Virus genome (UHGV): UHGV-0071160
Length of the DNA: 13,797 bases
Reading direction: 5' to 3' (one strand)
From: a virus
Of this stretch, positions 1,638 through 13,797 are shown piece by piece. A model generated the notes under the pieces. The model ran no database searches, was not told where the DNA came from, and saw only the letters and a program-made list of their open reading frames with translations. How positions within the stretch are numbered: the first letter of the stretch is position 1; each line of letters starts with the position of its first letter. The position numbers and the translations under genes are program-made.

Positions 1638-2187
1638 GCATCATTGGAAAGTGGAAAAACAACCTGAGTGGTACGTGAAAGCTGTCAGAAAAACTATCGC
1701 GGCATTGCCTGGGGGTTACGCTGAAGCTGCTGACTGGCTGGATGTAACAGAGAACGCTTTATTCAACCGCCTTCGTGCAGATGGCGATCAGATTTTCCCG
1801 CTGGGATGGGCAATGGTTTTACAGCGCGCGGCTGGCACTCACTACATTGCGGATGCTGTCGCACAATCTGCTGGTGGGGTGTTCGTATCGCTTCCTGAAA
1901 TTGAGGAAGTAGAGAACGCCGATATAAACCAGCGCCTGCTGGAAGTCATCGAACAGATCGGGAATTACTCAAGGCAGATTCGTTCGGCAATCGAAGATGG
2001 GGTCGTGGAGCCACACGAGCAGACAGCAATTAATGATGAGTTGTATCTGTCAATTTCGAAGCTCCAGGAGCATGCAGCACTGGTCTACAAAATCTTTTGC
2101 GCTCCAGAAAAGAGTGACGCCCGCGAGTGTGCAGCTCCGGGCGTCGTGGCGTCGATTGCTTCTGGTTGTGGAGAAACTAACGCATGA
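1630..2187 (+). CDS. Early-operon protein at the cII position (uncharacterised; possibly a CII-like regulator)
   Basis: 185-aa ORF; GTG start preceded by AGGAGG (1617-1622); overlaps the Cro-like stop and is ATGA-coupled to the next ORF. Function is assigned by position only. Confidence 0.6.
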   Translation: MGKHHWKVEKQPEWYVKAVRKTIAALPGGYAEAADWLDVTENALFNRLRADGDQIFPLGWAMVLQRAAGTHYIADAVAQSAGGVFVSLPEIEEVENADINQRLLEVIEQIGNYSRQIRSAIEDGVVEPHEQTAINDELYLSISKLQEHAALVYKIFCAPEKSDARECAAPGVVASIASGCGETNA

Positions 2188-3332
2188 ACAGTTTAACGGC
2201 AAATAACCGTTTGTCGCAACAGCTGGTGGTCAGCGTCGCTGAACACCTGTTGTTACGGCATGAATGCAGATTACCAAATCACCTGGCTGTAAGTAACCAC
2301 AGAGAACTTTACCTGACTGTGGGGGGCGAGTTGTGCAGGAACTTAACCGCTGGTTTCGTGACGGAAGAGGACTTTATGTTCATGTTATTCGTTGGGAGCC
2401 AGAAACACAGCGCGTTATCTATCTTCGCAAAGACTACCAGCATGAGTGCTTTAGTCCTTTGTGGAAATTCAGGCGTGATTTTGTTGAGTGTGAAGGACCA
2501 CCAGCACATTGATTCTGCCATTCCGGGACGTTACACTGTTCAGGCACCTTATAAAGCGGGTGTCGGGATTGGCGTCCTGGAATTGCATACGGCGACAATT
2601 GGCGCGTTAGCGTCTTTTTTGTTGCTACAACTCAGCTATACCCAAATTATGGTGGGCTGGGTGGGGGCACCGAAAGGTGCGCCGGTTTCCGTATGCGCCG
2701 GTTACGCCAACCCTGCTCAGTTCACCACCAGCGAAATTGGCGTTTCCGGTGGTGGAAGTTATCCATTGCATACGGAGGCTGCCATCATGGCTACGATCCC
2801 AACCCTCACTCAACCTGAAATTGCCATCGTTGATGGTCAGGCTGTTACTTCATCCCTGGCTGTTGCCAACTTCTTCTCCAAACGTCATGACGATGTACTG
2901 AAAAAGATCCGCACGCTTGAATGTTCCGCATCATTCACTGCCCGCAATTTTTCGGTGAGTGATTACACCGATTGCACAGGCCGCAAACTACCTTGCTATC
3001 AAATAACCCGCGACGGCTTTGCGTTTCTTGCTATGGGTTTCACGGGTAAACGTGCTGCCCAGTTCAAAGAGGCATACATCAATGCCTTTAACCAGATGGA
3101 AAAACTGCTTTCAAAGCCATCCACGCTGAGCGATGCCGCAGATAACGCCAGCGTGCTTTACTCCCACCTGTCGGTAATCCACAAGGTCTGGCTGCAGCAG
3201 CTTTATCCCATGTTGGCAAAAGCCGAATCCCCGCTGGCTGTAAGTCTGTATGACCGCATCAACGACGCGGCGCTACTGGCCAGTCTCATAAATTTGTCGC
3301 TGAACCCTTCAGAGGTAAGGGGGCGCAAATGA
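2184..3332 (+). CDS. Rha-family phage regulatory protein (Rha-like domain in the C-terminal 182 aa); ~200-aa upstream in-frame extension of uncertain status, alternative start at ATG 2787
   Basis: Open frame of 382 codons. Residues from the internal Met at 2787 (MATIPTLTQPEIAIVDGQAVTSSLAVANFFSKRHDDVLKKIRTL...) match the usual N-terminus of Rha proteins, with GGAGG 8 nt upstream. The upstream 200 codons are low in charged residues, but the frame stays open and the 2184 ATG is ATGA-coupled to the preceding gene. Confidence 0.55.
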   Translation: MNSLTANNRLSQQLVVSVAEHLLLRHECRLPNHLAVSNHRELYLTVGGELCRNLTAGFVTEEDFMFMLFVGSQKHSALSIFAKTTSMSALVLCGNSGVILLSVKDHQHIDSAIPGRYTVQAPYKAGVGIGVLELHTATIGALASFLLLQLSYTQIMVGWVGAPKGAPVSVCAGYANPAQFTTSEIGVSGGGSYPLHTEAAIMATIPTLTQPEIAIVDGQAVTSSLAVANFFSKRHDDVLKKIRTLECSASFTARNFSVSDYTDCTGRKLPCYQITRDGFAFLAMGFTGKRAAQFKEAYINAFNQMEKLLSKPSTLSDAADNASVLYSHLSVIHKVWLQQLYPMLAKAESPLAVSLYDRINDAALLASLINLSLNPSEVRGRK

Positions 3333-7667: not shown

Positions 7668-8663
7668 GTGACCGTGAGAGCACTACTGACCCCTGAAATC
7701 GCCCCGCGTATGGGGATCGTATTGTTCAGGCCAGGTTCAGAGCTGATGCCCCTGTTTATGCAGGGGCGTGTCCTGCTGGAGCCTGAGCCGGAACGTTATT
7801 CATCTTTTGCCAGTGGTGCCGTTCCGGCATCATCACAACCGCTGGCGGATGATCCTGCCGTTCGGGCCGTGTTCCGCCATGAGGCGGTGATCCGTCGTGC
7901 TGGTGGCGTGGAATGCCTTGAGAGCTGGTTACTTCGTGAAAAGGGCTGTCAGTGGCCTCATTCCGACTGGCACAGCGAGAACATGACCACAATGCGGCAC
8001 GCGCCAGGCGCAATCCGTCTGTGCTGGCACTGTGACAATCTTCTCCGTGACCAGTTCACGGAACGGCTGGAAGCAATGGCAACGGATAACTGTGCCCGCT
8101 GGGTGTTGTCTGTTGTGCGCCGTGATCTTGGTTTTGATGACAGTCACGTTGTGACAATGCCGGAACTGTGCTGGTGGCTGGTTCGTAATGACCTGGCGGA
8201 TGCTTTACCGGAAAGTGCAGCCCGTAAGGCCCTGAGATTACCGAAGCCTGTTTTGCCGTCTGTCACCCGGGAGAGTGACCTTGTACCTTCGGTTACTGCC
8301 ACCAGTATTATCCGGGATAAAGCGAAAAAGGTGCTGGCGCTGAAAGTGGATCCGGAGTCGCCGGAGTCTTTTATGTTACGCCCCAAACGTCGTCGCTGGG
8401 TTAATGAAAAGTACACTCGCTGGGTTAAGACGCAGCCGTGTGCATGTTGTGGAAAGCCAGCTGATGATCCGCATCATCTGATTGGTCACGGCCAGGGTGG
8501 TATGGGGACAAAAGCGCATGATCTCTTTGTGTTGCCTTTGTGCAGAAAACACCATGACGAACTGCATGTGGATACCGTGGCATTTGAAGAGAAGTATGGT
8601 TCCCAACTGGAGCTGATATTTCGTTTTATCGATCGCGCACTGGCGATTGGTGTGCTGTCCTGA
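7668..8663 (+). CDS. DUF968-like (YdfU-like) prophage protein with C-terminal Cys/His HNH-like motif
   Basis: 331-aa ORF; C-terminus CACCGKPADDPHHLIGHGQGGMGTKAHDLFVLPLCRKHHDELH. Lies immediately upstream of Q, as ydfU does next to the Q homolog in E. coli Qin (recalled, not verified). Confidence 0.6.
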   Translation: MTVRALLTPEIAPRMGIVLFRPGSELMPLFMQGRVLLEPEPERYSSFASGAVPASSQPLADDPAVRAVFRHEAVIRRAGGVECLESWLLREKGCQWPHSDWHSENMTTMRHAPGAIRLCWHCDNLLRDQFTERLEAMATDNCARWVLSVVRRDLGFDDSHVVTMPELCWWLVRNDLADALPESAARKALRLPKPVLPSVTRESDLVPSVTATSIIRDKAKKVLALKVDPESPESFMLRPKRRRWVNEKYTRWVKTQPCACCGKPADDPHHLIGHGQGGMGTKAHDLFVLPLCRKHHDELHVDTVAFEEKYGSQLELIFRFIDRALAIGVLS

Positions 8664-8680
8664 TTTTGTGGAGAAAGTTG

Positions 8681-9073
8681 ATGCGTGATATTCAGATGGT
8701 TCTTGAACGCTGGGGGGCATGGGCGGCAAGTGGTAACACCGGGGTGGACTATTCTCCGATAGCTGCTGGATTTAAAGGCCTTTTACCATCCACCGCTAAA
8801 CCTCGCCCGGCCTGCAGCGATGATGACGGCCTTATCATCGAAAACTGCCTTACGCGCCTGAAGAAGAAAAAACCGGACGAGTATTCGCTGCTGGTAGCTC
8901 ATTATCTGCTGCGCATATCAAAAAGGCAGATTGCCAGAACAAGAAAGAAGAGCGAAAAGGCAATACGAATTGAGATGCAGATTGCTGAAGGATTTATTGA
9001 CGGATGTCTGTCGATGCTGGGTGTAAGGCTGGAGATGGACGACTGGCTGCCCAAAAAAGTAAAAAATGATTAG
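8681..9073 (+). CDS. Late-gene antiterminator Q (phage 82/21, QuuD-like type)
   Basis: N-terminus MRDIQMVLERWGAWAASGN...IAAGFKGL matches the recalled QuuD/Q family N-terminus. ATG 8681 has GGAG 8 nt upstream (the track's TTG 8666 is less likely). Followed by terminators and the late-region tRNA cluster. Confidence 0.8.
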   Translation: MRDIQMVLERWGAWAASGNTGVDYSPIAAGFKGLLPSTAKPRPACSDDDGLIIENCLTRLKKKKPDEYSLLVAHYLLRISKRQIARTRKKSEKAIRIEMQIAEGFIDGCLSMLGVRLEMDDWLPKKVKND

Positions 9074-9130
9074 CGCGGTCCGCAAAAAGTATGTCAGTAT
9101 GTTAAGAGTGGTTACTACGCCACACAACTT

Positions 9131-9156
9131 AAACCCGCCGCCTGGCGGGTTTTTTA
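9131..9156 (+). terminator. Intrinsic terminator downstream of Q
   Basis: Stem CCCGCC/GGCGGG (9134-9139 / 9144-9149), 4-nt loop, then TTTTTT (9150-9155). Confidence 0.6.
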
Positions 9157-9278
9157 TGACTGAAATCGCATCAGTACAGTAAACGTGCTGGTGGTGGTGA
9201 ATACCGGTCTTTCAGCTTGCTGGCTTTTTCGACAAGAGTTATTGGTGTGTCACGTTAACCGGAAAAGGGAAAAAGACA

Positions 9279-9475
9279 TGCTGAAACAGCAGGATATGAC
9301 CGAAACCGCCAGAGTGGTGTTTAATGAATTAAGTGCCACCGAACCGGCGACAGTCGGGGAGATTGCGCAGAATACTTACCTTTCACGCGAACGCTGCCAG
9401 TTAATACTGACCCAGCTGGTTATGGCGGGTCTGGCAGACTATCAGTTCGGTTGTTACAGACGCCTTCAGTCCTGA
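9279..9475 (+). CDS. Small putative winged-helix DNA-binding protein (65 aa)
   Basis: ATG 9279 with SD-like AAGGGA upstream; the ORF ends inside a strong terminator hairpin. Sequence (TVGEIAQNTYLSRERCQLILTQLVMAGLA) looks like a wHTH. The longer track version (GTG 9185) has no RBS. Confidence 0.5.
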
Positions 9476-9490
9476 AGGCTTTTTTATTTG
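9462..9490 (+). terminator. Intrinsic terminator (candidate tR'-equivalent) overlapping the stop of the small wHTH ORF
   Basis: Stem GCCTTCA/TGAAGGC (9462-9468 / 9473-9479), 4-nt loop, then TTTTTTATTTG. Confidence 0.65.
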
Positions 9491-9625
9491 TGGTAAATGG
9501 GCGGCTGGTGGGTGTTAGGGGCACTCACCAGCCATCTGCTCATGCGTCCGGATCACAAGCAAACCTCAGGCCCACTGCTTTGCGCAAAAGCAGAATGAGC
9601 CTATCAGAGACAGGCTTAATGATCC

Positions 9626-10684
9626 ATGCTTAATACTGTAAAAATATCCAGTTGTGAGTTAATCAACGCCGACTGCCTGGAATTTATCCGGTCGTTACCC
9701 GAAAATTCTGTTGACCTGATAGTCACGGACCCGCCGTACTTTAAAGTGAAGCCTGAGGGCTGGGATAACCAGTGGAAGGGCGACGATGATTACCTGAAAT
9801 GGCTGGACCAGTGTCTGGCGCAGTTCTGGCGGGTGCTGAAACCTGCCGGAAGTCTTTACCTGTTCTGTGGCCATCGCCTGGCGTCTGACATTGAAATCAT
9901 GATGCGTGAACGCTTCAATGTGCTGAACCATATTATCTGGGCGAAGCCGTCCGGACGCTGGAACGGGTGCAACAAGGAAAGCCTGAGGGCATATTTCCCC
10001 GCCACAGAGCGCATTCTGTTCGCGGAACATTATCAGGGGCCGTATCGCCCGAAAGATGCCGGGTATGAGGCGAAGGGCAGGGCACTGAAACAGCATGTGA
10101 TGGCCCCGCTGATTTCTTACTTTCGTGATGCGCGTGCTGCCCTGGGGATAACGGCAAAACAGATTGCTGATGCCACAGGAAAGAAAAACATGGTGTCGCA
10201 CTGGTTCAGTGCCAGCCAGTGGCAGCTACCGGACGAAAGCGATTATCTGAAATTACAGGCGCTGTTTGCCCGGGTGGCAGAAGATAAGCATCAGCGCGGA
10301 GAACTGGAAAAGCCACATCACCAACTGGTCAGCACATACAGTGAACTGAACCGGCAGTATACGGAACTGCAGAGTGAATATAAGCATCTGCGGCGGTATT
10401 TTGGTGTGACGGTGCAGGTGCCGTACACCGATGTGTGGACGCATAAACCGGTGCAGTACTATCCCGGGAAACATCCGTGCGAAAAACCGGCAGAAATGCT
10501 GCAGCAGATAATCAGCGCGAGCAGTCGTCCGGGTGACCTGGTTGCAGATTTCTTCATGGGGTCAGGTTCGACAGTCAAAGCAGCGATAGCGCTGGGACGT
10601 CGTGCAACTGGCGTTGAGCTGGAGACTGAGCGTTTTGAGCAGACGGTCAGGGAAGTTCAGAATTTAGTCAGTCAGAACGGATGA
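9626..10684 (+). CDS. Orphan beta-class DNA methyltransferase (N6-adenine or N4-cytosine; DPPY motif IV precedes FxGxG motif I)
   Basis: 352-aa ORF; DPPY at residues 35-38 (LIVTDPPYF) and C-terminal AdoMet motif (DLVADFFMGSGST), i.e. the circularly permuted beta-class order. No restriction-endonuclease-like ORF adjacent. Confidence 0.85.
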   Translation: MLNTVKISSCELINADCLEFIRSLPENSVDLIVTDPPYFKVKPEGWDNQWKGDDDYLKWLDQCLAQFWRVLKPAGSLYLFCGHRLASDIEIMMRERFNVLNHIIWAKPSGRWNGCNKESLRAYFPATERILFAEHYQGPYRPKDAGYEAKGRALKQHVMAPLISYFRDARAALGITAKQIADATGKKNMVSHWFSASQWQLPDESDYLKLQALFARVAEDKHQRGELEKPHHQLVSTYSELNRQYTELQSEYKHLRRYFGVTVQVPYTDVWTHKPVQYYPGKHPCEKPAEMLQQIISASSRPGDLVADFFMGSGSTVKAAIALGRRATGVELETERFEQTVREVQNLVSQNG

Positions 10685-10686
10685 TA

Positions 10687-10715
10687 TTGCAGAATTAGTT
10701 ACGTACCGTTATTAT
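10687..10715 (+). promoter_or_regulatory. Sigma70-like promoter for the tRNA cluster
   Basis: -35 TTGCAG (10687-10692), 17-bp spacer, -10 TATTAT (10710-10715), about 9 nt upstream of the first tRNA. Confidence 0.45.
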
Positions 10716-10724
10716 CCTATGCCC

Positions 10725-10800
10725 AGCCCTTTAGCTCAGTGGTGAGAGCGAGCGACTCATAATCGCCAGGTCGCTGGTTCAAATCCAGCAAGGGCCACCA
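10725..10800 (+). tRNA. tRNA with CAU anticodon (Ile2-type/Met; ileX/ileZ-like)
   Basis: Cloverleaf folded by hand: D-stem GCTC/GAGC, anticodon loop CTCATAA (U33, anticodon CAT), T-loop TTCAAAT, 3' CCA encoded. Near-identical in layout to E. coli tRNA-Ile2 as recalled. Position 1:72 is an A-C mismatch. Confidence 0.85.
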
Positions 10801-10809
10801 TATCACATA

Positions 10810-10886
10810 CCGCCATTAGCTCATCGGGATAGAGCGCCAGCCTTCGGAGCTGGCTGCGCGGGGTTCGAGTCCTCGATGGCGGTCCA
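10810..10886 (+). tRNA. tRNA-Arg (anticodon UCG)
   Basis: Perfect 7-bp acceptor stem CCGCCAT/ATGGCGG, anticodon stem CCAGC/GCTGG, loop CTTCGGA (anticodon TCG), T-loop TTCGAGT, CCA encoded. Confidence 0.85.
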
Positions 10887-10899
10887 TTATCAGCATCAT

Positions 10900-10976
10900 G
10901 CGTTGTTAGCTCAGCCGGACAGAGCAATTGCCTTCTAAGCAACCGGTCACTGGTTCGAATCCAGTACAACGCGCCA
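10900..10976 (+). tRNA. tRNA-Arg (anticodon UCU; argU/argO-like)
   Basis: Acceptor stem GCGTTGT/ACAACGC, anticodon loop CTTCTAA (anticodon TCT), T-loop TTCGAAT, CCA encoded. Confidence 0.85.
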
Positions 10977-10990
10977 GACTTATTTTTCCC

Positions 10991-11016
10991 GGCTCGCTTT
11001 TGCGGGCCTTTTTTGT
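10991..11016 (+). terminator. Intrinsic terminator after the tRNA cluster
   Basis: Stem GGCTCGC/GCGGGCC (one G-U pair), loop TTTT, followed by TTTTTTGT. Confidence 0.55.
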
Positions 11017-11146
11017 CTCCGCGCCACGCCCGGCGCATATCAACCACAGAGCCTTTCGGGGGTGAGCTTACGGAGTGGTCAGTGTGACTTTCTCTGTGGG
11101 CAGATCGCTCCCGGGCGTTGGCTCACCCACCCAAAGGAACGTCACA

Positions 11147-11578
11147 ATGCTTGGAATCTTCAAAAAGAAAACCCGCAGAGCGGCTGCGGAAATTAAAAAG
11201 TTTGAAAAACGCGATCTGGCACAGGCAGTGATTAACGCTGCATACCTGGTGGCTTATGCCGATGGTGAATGTGAGGCTTCCGAGAAAGCGAAGATCGAAC
11301 AGGTATTACGTAACCAGCCCACCTTGTCCGCGTTTACGTCAGAAATTAATGCGATTAGCGCAACCATTATCGGTCAGCTGGATACGAACTTTAAAATTGG
11401 TCGTCGAGCGGCGTTACGTGAGATCGAGGATGTGAAACACGATACGCGTGAAGCGGAAGACGTGCTGGATGTGGCGGTGGCCATTGCCGAAGCAGACGGC
11501 GAAATAGAGCCGGAAGAGCGCAAGGTGCTGGAAGAGATTGCCGGTGTTCTGGGCCTTCGTCTGGAGAATCATCTGTGA
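11147..11578 (+). CDS. TerB-like domain protein (tellurite-resistance TerB / DjlA-N-like fold), moron at the stx-equivalent position
   Basis: 143 aa from ATG 11147 (SD AAAGGA 7 nt upstream; the track's GTG 11075 is an in-frame upstream alternative). Two repeated A-x-ADGE motifs (AYADGECEASEKAKI and AEADGEIEPEERKVL) characteristic of TerB-like helical bundles. Confidence 0.7.
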   Translation: MLGIFKKKTRRAAAEIKKFEKRDLAQAVINAAYLVAYADGECEASEKAKIEQVLRNQPTLSAFTSEINAISATIIGQLDTNFKIGRRAALREIEDVKHDTREAEDVLDVAVAIAEADGEIEPEERKVLEEIAGVLGLRLENHL

Positions 11579-11586
11579 CGGTAAAA

Positions 11587-11739
11587 ATGCGTCTGGCTGT
11601 GGTTGCGCTCCTGCTGTTTCTGGTGGTGATGGTGGACTTCAGCAGCCGGATAATGTCAGTGCTGGCTGACGGTGTGCTGGTGGCGGGTGTGGTGGTTGTT
11701 GCTTCCCCGTTGCTGAAAAAGAAAGCATCAGGCGATTAG
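11587..11739 (+). CDS. Small hydrophobic peptide (50 aa, two predicted transmembrane helices, basic C-terminus)
   Basis: Not in the ORF track (under 60 aa). ATG 11587 is 8 nt after the TerB-like stop (in-frame GTG 11575 overlaps that stop). Sequence MRLAVVALLLFLVVMVDFSSRIMSVLADGVLVAGVVVVASPLLKKKASGD; followed by a terminator. Confidence 0.45.
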   Translation: MRLAVVALLLFLVVMVDFSSRIMSVLADGVLVAGVVVVASPLLKKKASGD

Positions 11740-11980
11740 CAGGGTATCAGTTACCCGTTGAAATTTTTAAATACCTCACAATTCAGGCGGTTGACTGTTG
11801 TCTGGTTTACGGGGAGTTTGTTAAAAGAAACTGGCATGGTGAATCCCCCTGTGCGGAGGGGCATATCAGCGACAGGTGTTTGGTCACACCCCTTATCCTT
11901 TCTGGTGCGGGTTCAGGTGCTGATACTGAACTCACCGGGAGGCACCCGGCACCATGCAATGGCACATAGCGCCACTCTCC

Positions 11981-12010
11981 AGCCCCTCTCCGGAGGGGCT
12001 TTCTTGTTGG
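11981..12010 (+). terminator. Intrinsic terminator (plus strand)
   Basis: Perfect 8-bp stem AGCCCCTC/GAGGGGCT (11981-11988 / 11993-12000), loop TCCG, followed by TTCTTGTTGG. Confidence 0.5.
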
Positions 12011-12012
12011 AT

Positions 12013-12041
12013 AAAAAAAAGCCCGCGCCGGGAAGCGCGGG
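12013..12041 (-). terminator. Intrinsic terminator (minus strand), convergent with the preceding one
   Basis: Stem CCCGCGC/GCGCGGG (12022-12028 / 12035-12041) preceded on the plus strand by A8 (12013-12020), giving hairpin plus U8 on the minus strand. Confidence 0.5.
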
Positions 12042-12242
12042 TGGCAAGGAATAAACAACAAAACGTGAAGTGATCAATTTTCAGCTGGCGAATAATACCT
12101 GATAGTAATCACTCTGCGCAACTGTATGGTCTTTTTCGTATTGCGGGCTGTAGTCATCCTCCTGTTTCTGAACCCTTGTCCATGACTGACGTCAGCCCGC
12201 ACCTTATCTTGATTGCATACACTATCCCTGCCGGGAGGAATA

Positions 12243-13797
12243 ATGGCATTTAAACACTATGACGTGGTCAGGGCATCATCGCCGTCAGACCTCGCAGGAA
12301 AACTGACGCAAAAACTGAAGGAAGGCTGGCAACCCTATGGTAGTCCGATTATCTCAAACGCGGGTTATGGTGCTGAATTTATCCAGGCTATAGTCGCTGA
12401 AGGGGATATGACCTCTCCGGTAGTTTCACCGGGGGGAGATGGTACCCGGACTGTTGTTGTTGAACCAGAATATTACTTTGTCATTGCGCTGGCCGGACAG
12501 TCAAACGGCATGGCGTATGGTGAAGGCCTGCCGCTGCCGGAGACATATGACCGTCCGGACCCGCGTATTAAACAGCTGGCGCGTCGCAGTACGGTGACGC
12601 CGGGTGGTGTCGCCTGTAAATATAACGACATCATTCCGGCAGACCACTGTCTGCATGATGTGCAGGATATGAGTAACCTGAATCATCCTGAAGCGGACTT
12701 GTCAAAGGGACAGTACGGTTGTGTGGGGCATGCTCTGCATGTTGCCAAAAAGCTGCTGCCGTTTATGCCTGCGAATGCGGGTATCCTTCTTGTTCCATGT
12801 GGCCGTGGCGATTCGGGATTTACTGCGGGGGCCGAGGGGGCGTTTAACGAAGCGTCGGGAGCGACCGCAGGCTCGTCCCTGTGGGGGGCGGATAAACCGC
12901 TGTATCATGACCTGGTCAGCAGAACCCGTGCGGCCCTGAAGAAAAATCCGAAGAACGTGCTGTTATCAGTGATCTGGATGCAGGGAGAAAAAGATGTCAG
13001 TTCGGGGAGACATGCAGAACACAATGCGCTTTTCCTTGCCATGGTAAATCAGTTCCGTACGGAACTGGCAGATGTGGCAGAGCAGTGTACTGGCGGGACA
13101 ACGGCCAGCGTCCCGTGGATTTGCGGTGATACCACGTACTACTGGAAGGAAAGGTATGCAGCGCCGTATGAGGCGGTTTACGGTGGGTATAAAGGCAAAG
13201 CTGCGCAGAATATTCACTTTGTGCCGTTGATGACGGATGAGCATGGTGTGAATGTGCCGACAAACGAGCCGTCAGAAGATCCGGACATTATCCCGGCGGG
13301 ATACTATGGCGCTGCGTCACGCACTGCCAGTAACTGGACGTCAGCCGATCGTAAAACGCACTTCAGTTCATGGGCGCGAAGAGGCCTTGTTTCAGACCGC
13401 CTGGCAGGTGCCATTTTGCAGTACGCCGGGCGGACATTATCGTTCCTTACCGGGCAGAGCGCACCGCAGTCGGGTGGTACAACTCCCGGTGATGATGTCA
13501 GTCCGGGGGTACCGGGTGTTGAGAAACCGCAGGATGGCGGTGTTGCTGGTACTGGTCATGATGAGGCCGTGAGCAGTACCAGGACGGTGGCTGAATATGA
13601 TGCGAACAGTGGAAATGGTGTATGGACAGAGCAGCAGTGGGGGGCTGCCGGTGGCAAAGGCACTGTGACTGATGACGGTGGACGGAAAGCGCTGCGACTG
13701 GAAAAACAGCCCGGTAAACTGACGTCCTGGAAAATGTTCTGTACTGTTGCAGTGGAGGAGGCAAAAAATCTTCTCAGCAAGGGGGGTGAAATTGCCG
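12243..13797 (+). CDS. nanS: Prophage sialate O-acetylesterase (NanS-p / YjhS-like, SGNH/DUF303 esterase), 5' partial, runs off the window
   Basis: ATG 12243 with GGGAGG upstream; frame open to the window end (518 codons). N-terminus MAFKHYDVV... and GQSN catalytic-serine motif (IALAGQSNGMAYGE) fit the esterase family found downstream of stx in Stx phages. Confidence 0.85.
   Translation, partial: MAFKHYDVVRASSPSDLAGKLTQKLKEGWQPYGSPIISNAGYGAEFIQAIVAEGDMTSPVVSPGGDGTRTVVVEPEYYFVIALAGQSNGMAYGEGLPLPETYDRPDPRIKQLARRSTVTPGGVACKYNDIIPADHCLHDVQDMSNLNHPEADLSKGQYGCVGHALHVAKKLLPFMPANAGILLVPCGRGDSGFTAGAEGAFNEASGATAGSSLWGADKPLYHDLVSRTRAALKKNPKNVLLSVIWMQGEKDVSSGRHAEHNALFLAMVNQFRTELADVAEQCTGGTTASVPWICGDTTYYWKERYAAPYEAVYGGYKGKAAQNIHFVPLMTDEHGVNVPTNEPSEDPDIIPAGYYGAASRTASNWTSADRKTHFSSWARRGLVSDRLAGAILQYAGRTLSFLTGQSAPQSGGTTPGDDVSPGVPGVEKPQDGGVAGTGHDEAVSSTRTVAEYDANSGNGVWTEQQWGAAGGKGTVTDDGGRKALRLEKQPGKLTSWKMFCTVAVEEAKNLLSKGGEIA

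Follow-up and report, generated by a model that had tools for sequence, protein, structure and literature searches.

The tciA-tciB cassette in the Shiga-toxin cargo slot of a lambdoid prophage and its covariation-supported leader

We analysed a 13,797-nt stretch of the viral genome UHGV-0071160 (the window), which is the immunity-to-late region of a lambdoid prophage, and in particular two genes that lie where Shiga-toxin-converting (Stx) phages carry stx2AB. The two genes almost certainly form a tciA-tciB accessory ('moron') cassette in the cargo slot of the prophage late operon, the names tciA and tciB coming from phage P1, and they stand behind a 5' leader with a predicted conserved structure. 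The cassette and its leader comprise the following features.

11147-11578, plus strand: tciA, encoding a 143-aa TerB-family protein (conserved ATG; Pfam TerB)
11575-11739, plus strand: tciB, encoding a 54-aa DUF3927 peptide, a predicted membrane hairpin (PF13064; GTG start)
11017-11146, plus strand: predicted structured 5' leader of tciA, about 130 nt (alignments, RNAalifold, covariance model)
11021-11025 with 11032-11036, plus strand: leader hairpin P0
11044-11051 with 11092-11099, plus strand: leader helix P1
11052-11056, plus strand: leader anti-Shine-Dalgarno sequence CCUUU
11060-11068 with 11120-11128, plus strand: leader helix P4
11133-11138, plus strand: ribosome-binding site (RBS, Shine-Dalgarno) AAAGGA

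The start of tciA was placed at the ATG at 11147, which is preceded by the AAAGGA RBS. An in-frame GTG at 11075, which would give 167 aa, was rejected, as it is not conserved and the region it would add is non-coding in homologues, with insertions and deletions that are not multiples of three; the first-pass annotation was thus right about the 143-aa reading frame and wrong in starting it at 11075. Its assignment of the product to the TerB family was borne out by three lines of evidence. TciA matched the Pfam TerB profile (PF05099) over residues 26-138 with 60.1 bits (cut-off 24.4, E=3.2e-16) and the Klebsiella pneumoniae TerB structure 2JXU by sequence (E=4e-8), AlphaFold2 gave a confident model (predicted local distance difference test score, pLDDT, 87; predicted template modelling score, pTM, 0.81) whose predicted fold is all-helical and TerB-like, and the sequence holds two acidic DG-x5-E motifs. 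Residues E46, D117, G118 and E124 were invariant, and D39 and G40 nearly so, among homologues down to 50% identity; duplicated motifs of this kind are reportedly the metal-binding site proposed by Anantharaman et al. in 2012. The first 22 residues carry a net charge of +7 and the remainder -13. Taken together, these results strongly indicate that TciA is a soluble acidic TerB-fold protein with a basic N-terminal helix.

The PHROGs entry for TciA (phrog_632) reads 'tellurite resistance', and the protein does resemble the TerB of terZABCDE(F) clusters (IncHI2 plasmid R478; K. pneumoniae, nuclear magnetic resonance structure 2JXU) in Pfam family, length, helical bundle and acidic motifs. The cluster-borne TerB has been reported to be membrane-associated, as a partner or interactor of the integral membrane protein TerC (PMC11003894), whereas TciA is phage-borne, in a late operon, is paired with a 54-aa hairpin instead of TerC, and has no other ter genes with it: the RefSeq annotation of a locus 99.9% identical to the window lists none within 24 kb, so there is no ter operon. 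TerB-like domains held at the inner membrane are also found in DjlA and DUF533/YebE, to which TciA gave weak partial matches (DUF533, 24.4 bits, below the curated cut-off; DjlA NF006948, 28.6 bits against a cut-off of 162, residues 87-138 only), although TciA lacks a J domain and its presumed membrane segment is encoded by another gene.

This second gene, tciB, most likely starts at the GTG at 11575, hence the 54 aa. The GTG overlaps the tciA stop codon (GTGA, 11575-11578) and lies 7 nt downstream of GGAGA; it was preferred because the N-terminus (V/M)TVK is conserved, while the ATG at 11587 is a Leu codon in most alleles. An identical 165-nt coding sequence is annotated in RefSeq at the 99.9%-identical locus. 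The peptide had been described as 50 aa long and beginning 8 nt after the TerB gene, which these observations correct, and as having two hydrophobic helices, which agrees with its two hydropathy peaks and its match to DUF3927 (66.9 bits, cut-off 25, E=1.6e-18, positions 4-50 of the 53-position profile; PHROGs phrog_1470, 'TciB-like'). A polar turn, DFSSRIMSVLADG, separates the peaks, and basic residues are present at both ends; on hydropathy alone, TciB should form a helical hairpin with both ends in the cytoplasm by the positive-inside rule. The conserved core reads VDF(S/T)Sxx(M/L)SVLADG, and divergence clusters in the C-terminal third, making the KKK tail allele-specific. In Pfam, TciB matched DUF3927 only and no holin or toxin family, class II holins and pinholins included; a related prophage encodes a class II holin and a lysozyme of its own some 3 kb further downstream.

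The pair is already catalogued. In a megablast search against phage records, Escherichia phage JLK-2012 (NC_049942) was found to carry genes annotated tciA and tciB, whose products are 96% and 98% identical to those of the window. In this phage and in pairs annotated by RefSeq as 'TerB family protein / DUF3927 family protein', the slot and the leader are the same as in the window, and the genes follow the same order (Q, tRNAs, tciA, tciB, an STnc100-like region, nanS-p, also named yjhS, and S-R-Rz), so that the position is identical; JLK-2012 has another Q type and another tRNA set (Asn/Thr/Gly), all of these being allelic differences only. In P1, too, the gene for a TerB protein of about 141-143 aa overlaps at its stop codon the start of a gene for a 54-aa DUF3927 peptide, and tRNA genes adjoin. 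The P1 proteins differ in being only 42% (TciA) and 50% (TciB) identical to those of the window, the P1 genes have no structured leader, and the third P1 peptide, TciC (35 aa, single helix), is absent from the window, where the tciB stop is 65 nt from STnc100 with no open reading frame (ORF) between. With entries in P1, JLK-2012, Pfam (TerB and DUF3927), PHROGs (632 and 1470) and RefSeq, the cassette is not a new module, and the first-pass claim of novelty for a TerB-plus-peptide pair at this locus does not stand.

The two genes are tightly linked. An HMM (hidden Markov model) built from four TciB sequences, run on the ORFs of loci fetched with TciA queries spanning 42-100% identity, found a TciB-like ORF beside tciA in 211 of 221 loci, in agreement with the earlier expectation that the peptide would be conserved next to the TerB gene; the loci lacking it were truncated contigs or very divergent clades. 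In the tabulated loci, tciB was on the same strand and 3' of tciA, with a start-stop gap of -4, -1 or +3 nt. The 80 closest viral contigs were scored for each feature wherever their length allowed: TciB followed tciA in 75/75, STnc100-like sequence lay within 400 nt downstream in 71/72, NanS-p within 1.6 kb downstream in 42/46 and a tRNA within 250 nt upstream in 50/79. The pair was also retained in Erwinia jumbo phages and in the strictly lytic N4-like phages Pollock and SP-058, where a TciA only 28-34% identical to that of the window is abutted by a clear TciB homologue. At least 80% of the 686-nt cassette was present in 790 of 5,426 complete RefSeq Escherichia coli genomes (about 15%), and some part of it in 2,189, with copies in up to eight places per genome and in four to five in the O157 strains among those listed.

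Between alleles with a synonymous divergence (dS) of about 0.6-0.7, the nonsynonymous divergence (dN) was about 0.01 for tciA (dN/dS about 0.02) and about 0.16 for tciB (dN/dS about 0.28), a substitution pattern by which both genes are under purifying selection and are not chance ORFs. Loss is nevertheless frequent: tciA was frameshifted in about 17 of 120 leader-containing viral contigs (e.g. L228, L231 and L238), and about half of one P1 subgroup has lost the tci genes (PMC9603915), all three of which were nonessential in a CRISPR interference (CRISPRi) screen of P1 (PMC10695390). Nonessentiality together with frequent loss or frameshifting fits a conflict or accessory gene.

Apparent cases of DUF3927 without TerB in many E. 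coli genomes proved to be truncated remnants, left at the corresponding Q-tRNA site of decayed prophages, and not an independent use of the peptide. Some of these truncated remnants adjoin iraM in defective prophages (L221 3004-3120, L222 2969-3100). As a separate observation, tRNA genes adjoin tciAB in unrelated phages (window 10725-10976; L001 5792-6025; L003 976-1444; L092; L094; P1, L002 1616-1769 and 3201-3276). They are Met/Arg/Arg or Asn/Thr/Gly in lambdoid phages, Asn and Thr upstream with CAU downstream in P1-like phages, Trp/Cys in Erwinia jumbo phages and Ser/Thr/Asn in others, and several other tciAB clades have no tRNA within 3 kb. Either a mobile module common to these phages or a hotspot for cargo could account for this adjacency.

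The element that is new here is the leader of tciA, whose structure is supported by covariation in comparative alignments. It was studied with alignments A5 and A6, RNAalifold, explicit pair counts and a covariance model (R1). Across 28 non-redundant leaders, 98% of the positions proposed to pair could do so and seven pairs showed compensatory changes; the covariation score was reached by none of 500 column shuffles, and register-shifted controls were only 38-58% paired. In the wider leader family, P1 occurs in five complementary versions (CACAGAG/CUCUGUG, CCGUAGAG/CUCUACGG, CCAAAGA/UCUUUGG, GAAAGU/ACUUUC and CGAUAAC/GUUAUCG), and the long-range helix P4 (GUGAGCC/GGCUCAC) covaries too, for example as GAUGAGCCCUG/CAGGGUUCAUC. 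In alignment A6 (19 sequences), P0, P1 and P4 together were 93.5% paired with 13 compensatory pairs, again at a score reached by 0/500 shuffles, in figures that reflect few independent compensatory events and an alignment partly fitted to its model, from which P4 was absent. Two further helices proposed by RNAalifold, P2 (CCUU/GGGG) and P3 (GAGC/GCUC), were not kept in the wider family and were dropped in favour of P4, which fits better. P1 and P4 interleave, suggesting a pseudoknot or alternative folds. The folding energy of the window leader is unremarkable (z = -1.78), so the case for structure rests on covariation.

The leader blocks AGAGCCUUU, GGCUCACCC and AAAGGA were invariant or nearly so, and the leader is far better conserved than expected, being 77% identical in nucleotides to that of Erwinia jumbo phages, though the TciA proteins are only 70% identical. 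R1 matched upstream of every tciA of the window's clade and gave no match in P1-like loci, P7/D6-like loci or about 55 chance genome loci. It also found weaker full-length copies before unrelated accessory genes, namely ant of phage 933W (P22_AR_N, between R and Rz), a KilAC antirepressor gene, an NMT1_3-like gene and three ORFs of unknown family. These other copies lie as follows.

L224 (933W): 7710-7857
L238: 13772-13922
L333: 77-209 and 3724-3849
L259: 3688-3815
L309: 157-284

Rfam gave no match to 11017-11146 on the plus strand at E<=5, and nothing at the gathering score on five other leader-carrying loci. A pattern scan of genome contigs (18 fixed bases, variable gap, 596 Gb) returned mostly chance matches, 3 of 120 preceding tciA.

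Thermodynamic folds of six divergent leaders left both G's of the RBS mostly paired, and in most of the six minimum-free-energy folds the partner was the conserved CCUUU, which points to translational repression by default. In these models the leader CCUUU probably sequesters the AAAGG ribosome-binding site and thereby gates translation of tciA; that the trigger for opening might be RNase III cleavage, temperature or an RNA-binding protein is conjecture. Two other roles were considered for the same sequence and rejected. The -35/-10 combination TTGTCT-17-CATATC, read as a sigma-70 promoter within the leader, is weak and its -10 element is not conserved across the alignment, so an RNA-level role was preferred; and base pairing between STnc100 and the leader gave an RNAduplex energy no better than that of shuffled small RNA (sRNA) sequences, 200 of 300 shuffles being at least as good.

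Around the cassette and its leader, the window contains the following features.

8666-9073, plus strand: late antiterminator Q (PF06530 Phage_antitermQ, E=3e-52)
9133-9156, plus strand: tR'-like intrinsic terminator about 60 nt 3' of Q (CCCGCCGCCTGGCGGG plus TTTTTTAT; sequence read by eye)
9462-9479, plus strand: intrinsic terminator (terminator scan)
9626-10684, plus strand: N6/N4 DNA methyltransferase gene between Q and the tRNAs (PF01555, E=9.5e-44)
10725-10800, plus strand: tRNA CAU (ARAGORN; cluster also matched by Rfam tRNA)
10810-10886, plus strand: tRNA Arg-UCG (ARAGORN; Rfam as above)
10900-10976, plus strand: tRNA Arg-UCU (ARAGORN; Rfam as above)
10991-11008, T-run to 11014, plus strand: intrinsic terminator 3' of the tRNAs (terminator scan)
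11805-12011, plus strand: STnc100-family (PasD-related) sRNA gene (Rfam RF02076, 134.2 bits, cut-off 47, model 1-206, full length)
12022-12041, minus strand: strong intrinsic terminator (terminator scan), where 933W has AsxR
12243-13797, open at the window end, plus strand: nanS-p type sialate O-acetylesterase (DUF1737 and SASA; PF08410, PF03629)
2184-3332: Rha/Ash-type regulatory ORF (Pfam Phage_pRha and Phage_ASH)

The flanks proposed in the first-pass annotation (Q, the CAU/UCG/UCU tRNAs and NanS-p) were thus all recovered by ARAGORN and Pfam, and the placement of the cassette at the stx position was confirmed by mapping onto 933W. Window positions 10574-11025 align at 94% identity with the 933W tRNA region, in which the three tRNAs are homologous to ileZ-argN-argO; the terminator at 10991-11014 is included and aligns with the one annotated in 933W as 'terminator upstream of the stx genes', so by alignment it is backbone common with Stx phages. 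Homology to 933W restarts at window position 11776, which corresponds to 46 nt past the stx2B stop codon. The exchanged interval is window 11026-11775 against stx2AB, and on this mapping the cassette fills exactly the stx2AB slot, flanked by the argO-type tRNA plus terminator on one side and STnc100/nanS-p on the other. The two cargoes are unrelated genes. A leader and promoter region of its own precedes stx2, where the tciA-type leader is missing (R1 score only 11.5 bits). TciA matched 130 phage records, whose ten leading organism-name categories include no Stx-converting phage. The slot appears empty in phage phi296, with 23 nt between the flanks (L223 1785-2316), and viral contig L333 (77-1822) has another cargo there, flanked by the same leader and by STnc100: a protein of 278 aa with a signal peptide and an NMT1_3 / phosphonate-binding-like domain, of periplasmic binding protein type.

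STnc100 is in the same position after stx2B in 933W, and comparison of the loci marks it as a fixed backbone part of the cargo slot. The family has been reported 75 nt downstream of stx2 in Stx2 phages (PMC12370729) and to be related to PasD (bioRxiv 10.64898/2026.05.13.724894). The cassette had been described as bracketed by terminators; this is correct upstream, at 10991, while the downstream segment 11981-12041 consists of two convergent terminators, the plus-strand one at 11981-12000 being that of STnc100 itself and the other lying on the minus strand (12041-12022). In 933W, AsxR occupies L224 3985-4037 on the minus strand; in the window, including the surroundings of 12022-12240, there was no Rfam match to AsxR or AgvB, and a different small antisense transcript may run opposite the nanS-p 5' region (about 12042-12240). 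An unsupported 42-aa ORF is present on the minus strand at 12074-12202. In P1-like phages, a hairpin ACCGGGA(A/G)GCACCCGGCACC occurs upstream of tciA (P1, L002 about 2400-2470; also L153 and L187); it closely resembles the conserved core of STnc100 (CACCGGGAGGCACCCGGCACC), a motif that in lambdoid phages lies downstream of tciB.

Elsewhere, the window encodes a CI-like S24 repressor, Dam, RusA, KilA-N and DUF968 proteins, and a 96-aa ORF without Pfam match (9185-9475, plus strand), which, like the 9462-9479 terminator, comes after the tR'-like hairpin. Within the ORF at 2184-3332, on the plus strand, Rfam matched isrK (2544-2620, 58.9 bits) and C4 antisense RNA (2645-2732, 80.7 bits), which suggests that this lambdoid prophage carries an immI-like antirepressor module of the P1/P7 type, controlled by C4.

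In agreement with the first-pass annotation, no sigma-70-like promoter was found on the plus strand in a scan of 8600-12400. At least three intrinsic terminators (9133-9156, 9462-9479 and 10991-11008) separate Q from tciA. We infer that the first of these, a strong hairpin with a T-run that the automated terminator scan did not report, is tR' from its position and sequence; a pR' promoter could not be located by consensus. Expression of stx2 depends on Q and pR'. The absence of an own promoter and the terminators upstream point to Q-dependent late expression, and most tciAB transcription after induction would, as for stx2, come from pR' by read-through under Q antitermination, a mechanism established for stx2 and carried over here by analogy. 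As the tciB start overlaps the tciA stop, both proteins are probably made together.

Regarding function, our tentative preference, held with less than even confidence, is that tciAB is a lytic-cycle, membrane-associated surveillance or competition module. TciB would anchor or partner TciA at the inner membrane, the two proteins reproducing in two pieces the layout 'membrane segment plus TerB domain' of TerB-TerC, DjlA and DUF533/YebE; read-through from pR' after induction would supply the transcript, and the leader, by setting CCUUU against the AAAGG RBS, would gate tciA translation further. The device would guard the inner membrane of the infected cell against superinfecting phages or pore-forming colicins, and the pair would be neither a toxin nor a stand-alone tellurite-resistance determinant. 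Three validated defence systems, Bunzi (BnzA), Shango (SngA) and Dionysus (DinB), contain TerB domains; 'membrane surveillance' has been proposed for them, and they likewise combine a TerB-like module with membrane components. Unlike tciAB, they are host-encoded, multi-domain or three-gene systems with enzymatic or pore-forming effectors. The R478 ter cluster reportedly confers phage inhibition and colicin resistance (Whelan et al.). The abortive-infection, superinfection-exclusion and lysis-timing roles put forward in the first-pass annotation stand as hypotheses, and competition with superinfecting phages has already been proposed for phage TerB genes, namely for the standalone TerB of Erwinia jumbo phages (PMC7824862). 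Taken as a whole, the account given here of identity, anatomy, expression and function is, in our judgement, just on the probable side.

Several observations weigh against the surveillance proposal and its late expression. AlphaFold2 applied to a natural frameshift fusion of TciA and TciB (P0004, unpaired alignment) gave a pLDDT of 73.7 and a pTM of 0.63, with the TciB part modelled as one low-confidence helix and no confident docking. The P1 tci genes lie downstream of C1-controlled ban promoters and not in a late operon, and in 933W a putative tRNA promoter lies in a segment conserved with the window, so that some weak Q-independent read-through is possible. The full-text literature searched on tciA, tciB and DUF3927 yielded annotations and speculation and no functional experiment. 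Among the defence models of PADLOC-DB v2, which presumably include Shango and Bunzi, the best TciA match was PDC-S48 (E=0.0031, 14.7 bits, not significant), and TciB had none. Finally, Vibrio phage D520 has no small partner at all, and in some Pseudomonas-type clades TciB is replaced by a different, single-helix peptide. In Pseudomonas phage AF (L466 about 1632-1850) and in L210 and L212, the gene after TerB encodes a 65-73-aa protein that has a single hydrophobic helix and the conserved motif C-x-WYGYQTER...FVGCMV...GWVP and may be an alternative membrane partner.

Among the alternatives, the one that survives best, though we consider it unlikely, is that TciA-TciB acts as lysis-timing insurance, stabilizing the inner membrane or the proton-motive force so that incidental damage does not trigger the holin prematurely. 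Lambda-type holins fire upon membrane depolarization, and in lambdoid prophages the late operon continues from the pair to nanS-p and the holin-endolysin cassette. TerB proteins have moreover been linked to inner-membrane stress modules (PMC11003894). The position near lysis genes is not general, however: the P1 pair follows the ban promoters, that of Erwinia jumbo phages is inside a tRNA cluster, that of N4-like phages has hypothetical genes and an N4 gp24-like ATPase as neighbours and no lysis gene close by, and the slot itself is a general cargo site that holds unrelated genes.

It is less probable still that TciB is a membrane-damaging peptide, holin-like or type-I-toxin-like, with TciA as its cytoplasmic regulator or antidote, the two forming an abortive-infection or cell-division-inhibition switch, a role echoed in the tci name, which carries 'inhibition of cell division'. 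The size and predicted topology of TciB (two hydrophobic helices, basic tail) do resemble those of small membrane toxins or class II holins, its coupling to a soluble upstream partner is strict, and Dionysus joins a TerB-like protein to a pore-forming membrane protein. Against this, TciB belongs to DUF3927 and to no holin or toxin family, its conserved polar residues are in the turn and not on a pore-lining face, and knock-down of P1 tciA was tolerated (PMC10695390), with the reservation that CRISPRi is polar. DUF3927 remnants also survive in decayed prophages that lack tciA; being truncated, they are hardly informative for or against.

We give very little weight to lysogenic conversion, in which the prophage TerB would add to or replace host ter functions in tellurite, metal or oxidative-stress resistance. 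The family and its name, the database annotation 'tellurite resistance' and the several copies in O157 strains suggest it, whereas no terC, terD or terE partner is nearby, no promoter was found that could drive the pair in a lysogen, and strictly lytic phages, to which a resistance trait for the host would be of little use, carry it too; the resistance constructs of the strains studied contain at least terBCDEF (PMC11003894). That the cassette is a functionless hitch-hiker, persisting through its embedding in a recombining backbone, is hardly credible: the many frameshifted tciA copies and truncated tciB remnants in prophages and the loss in part of the P1 subgroup are outweighed by the tciA substitution pattern (very low dN at high dS), the conserved tciA/tciB overlap and the survival of both genes together in phages as different as lambdoid, N4-like and jumbo ones. 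Surveillance or competition at the membrane therefore stays first in our ranking, at the tentative level given above, followed by lysis timing, a toxin-regulator pair and tellurite resistance.

These results place a TerB gene with its peptide among the commonest cargoes of the stx slot, often in several copies in O157 strains, and show tciAB to be strongly conserved and tightly coupled in temperate phages (lambdoid, P1-like) and strictly lytic ones (N4-like, jumbo) alike. Since TerB domains are now emerging in validated defence systems, a knock-out or expression study of tciAB could be informative. The layout of the Shiga-toxin cargo slot is modular, with terminator, structured leader, cargo and STnc100 sRNA in succession, and the distribution of the leader suggests a translational gate that different accessory genes can reuse. 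The further step, that it is an undescribed class of cis-regulatory RNA common to many unrelated accessory genes of lambdoid and Erwinia jumbo phages, cargo of the Shiga-toxin slot included, with tciAB behind it as a membrane-surveillance or superinfection-exclusion device, is possible but doubtful. The shared leader of the cargo slot is the element most worth following up; if it acts as a gate, it would bear on the timing of prophage cargo after induction, possibly including virulence genes.

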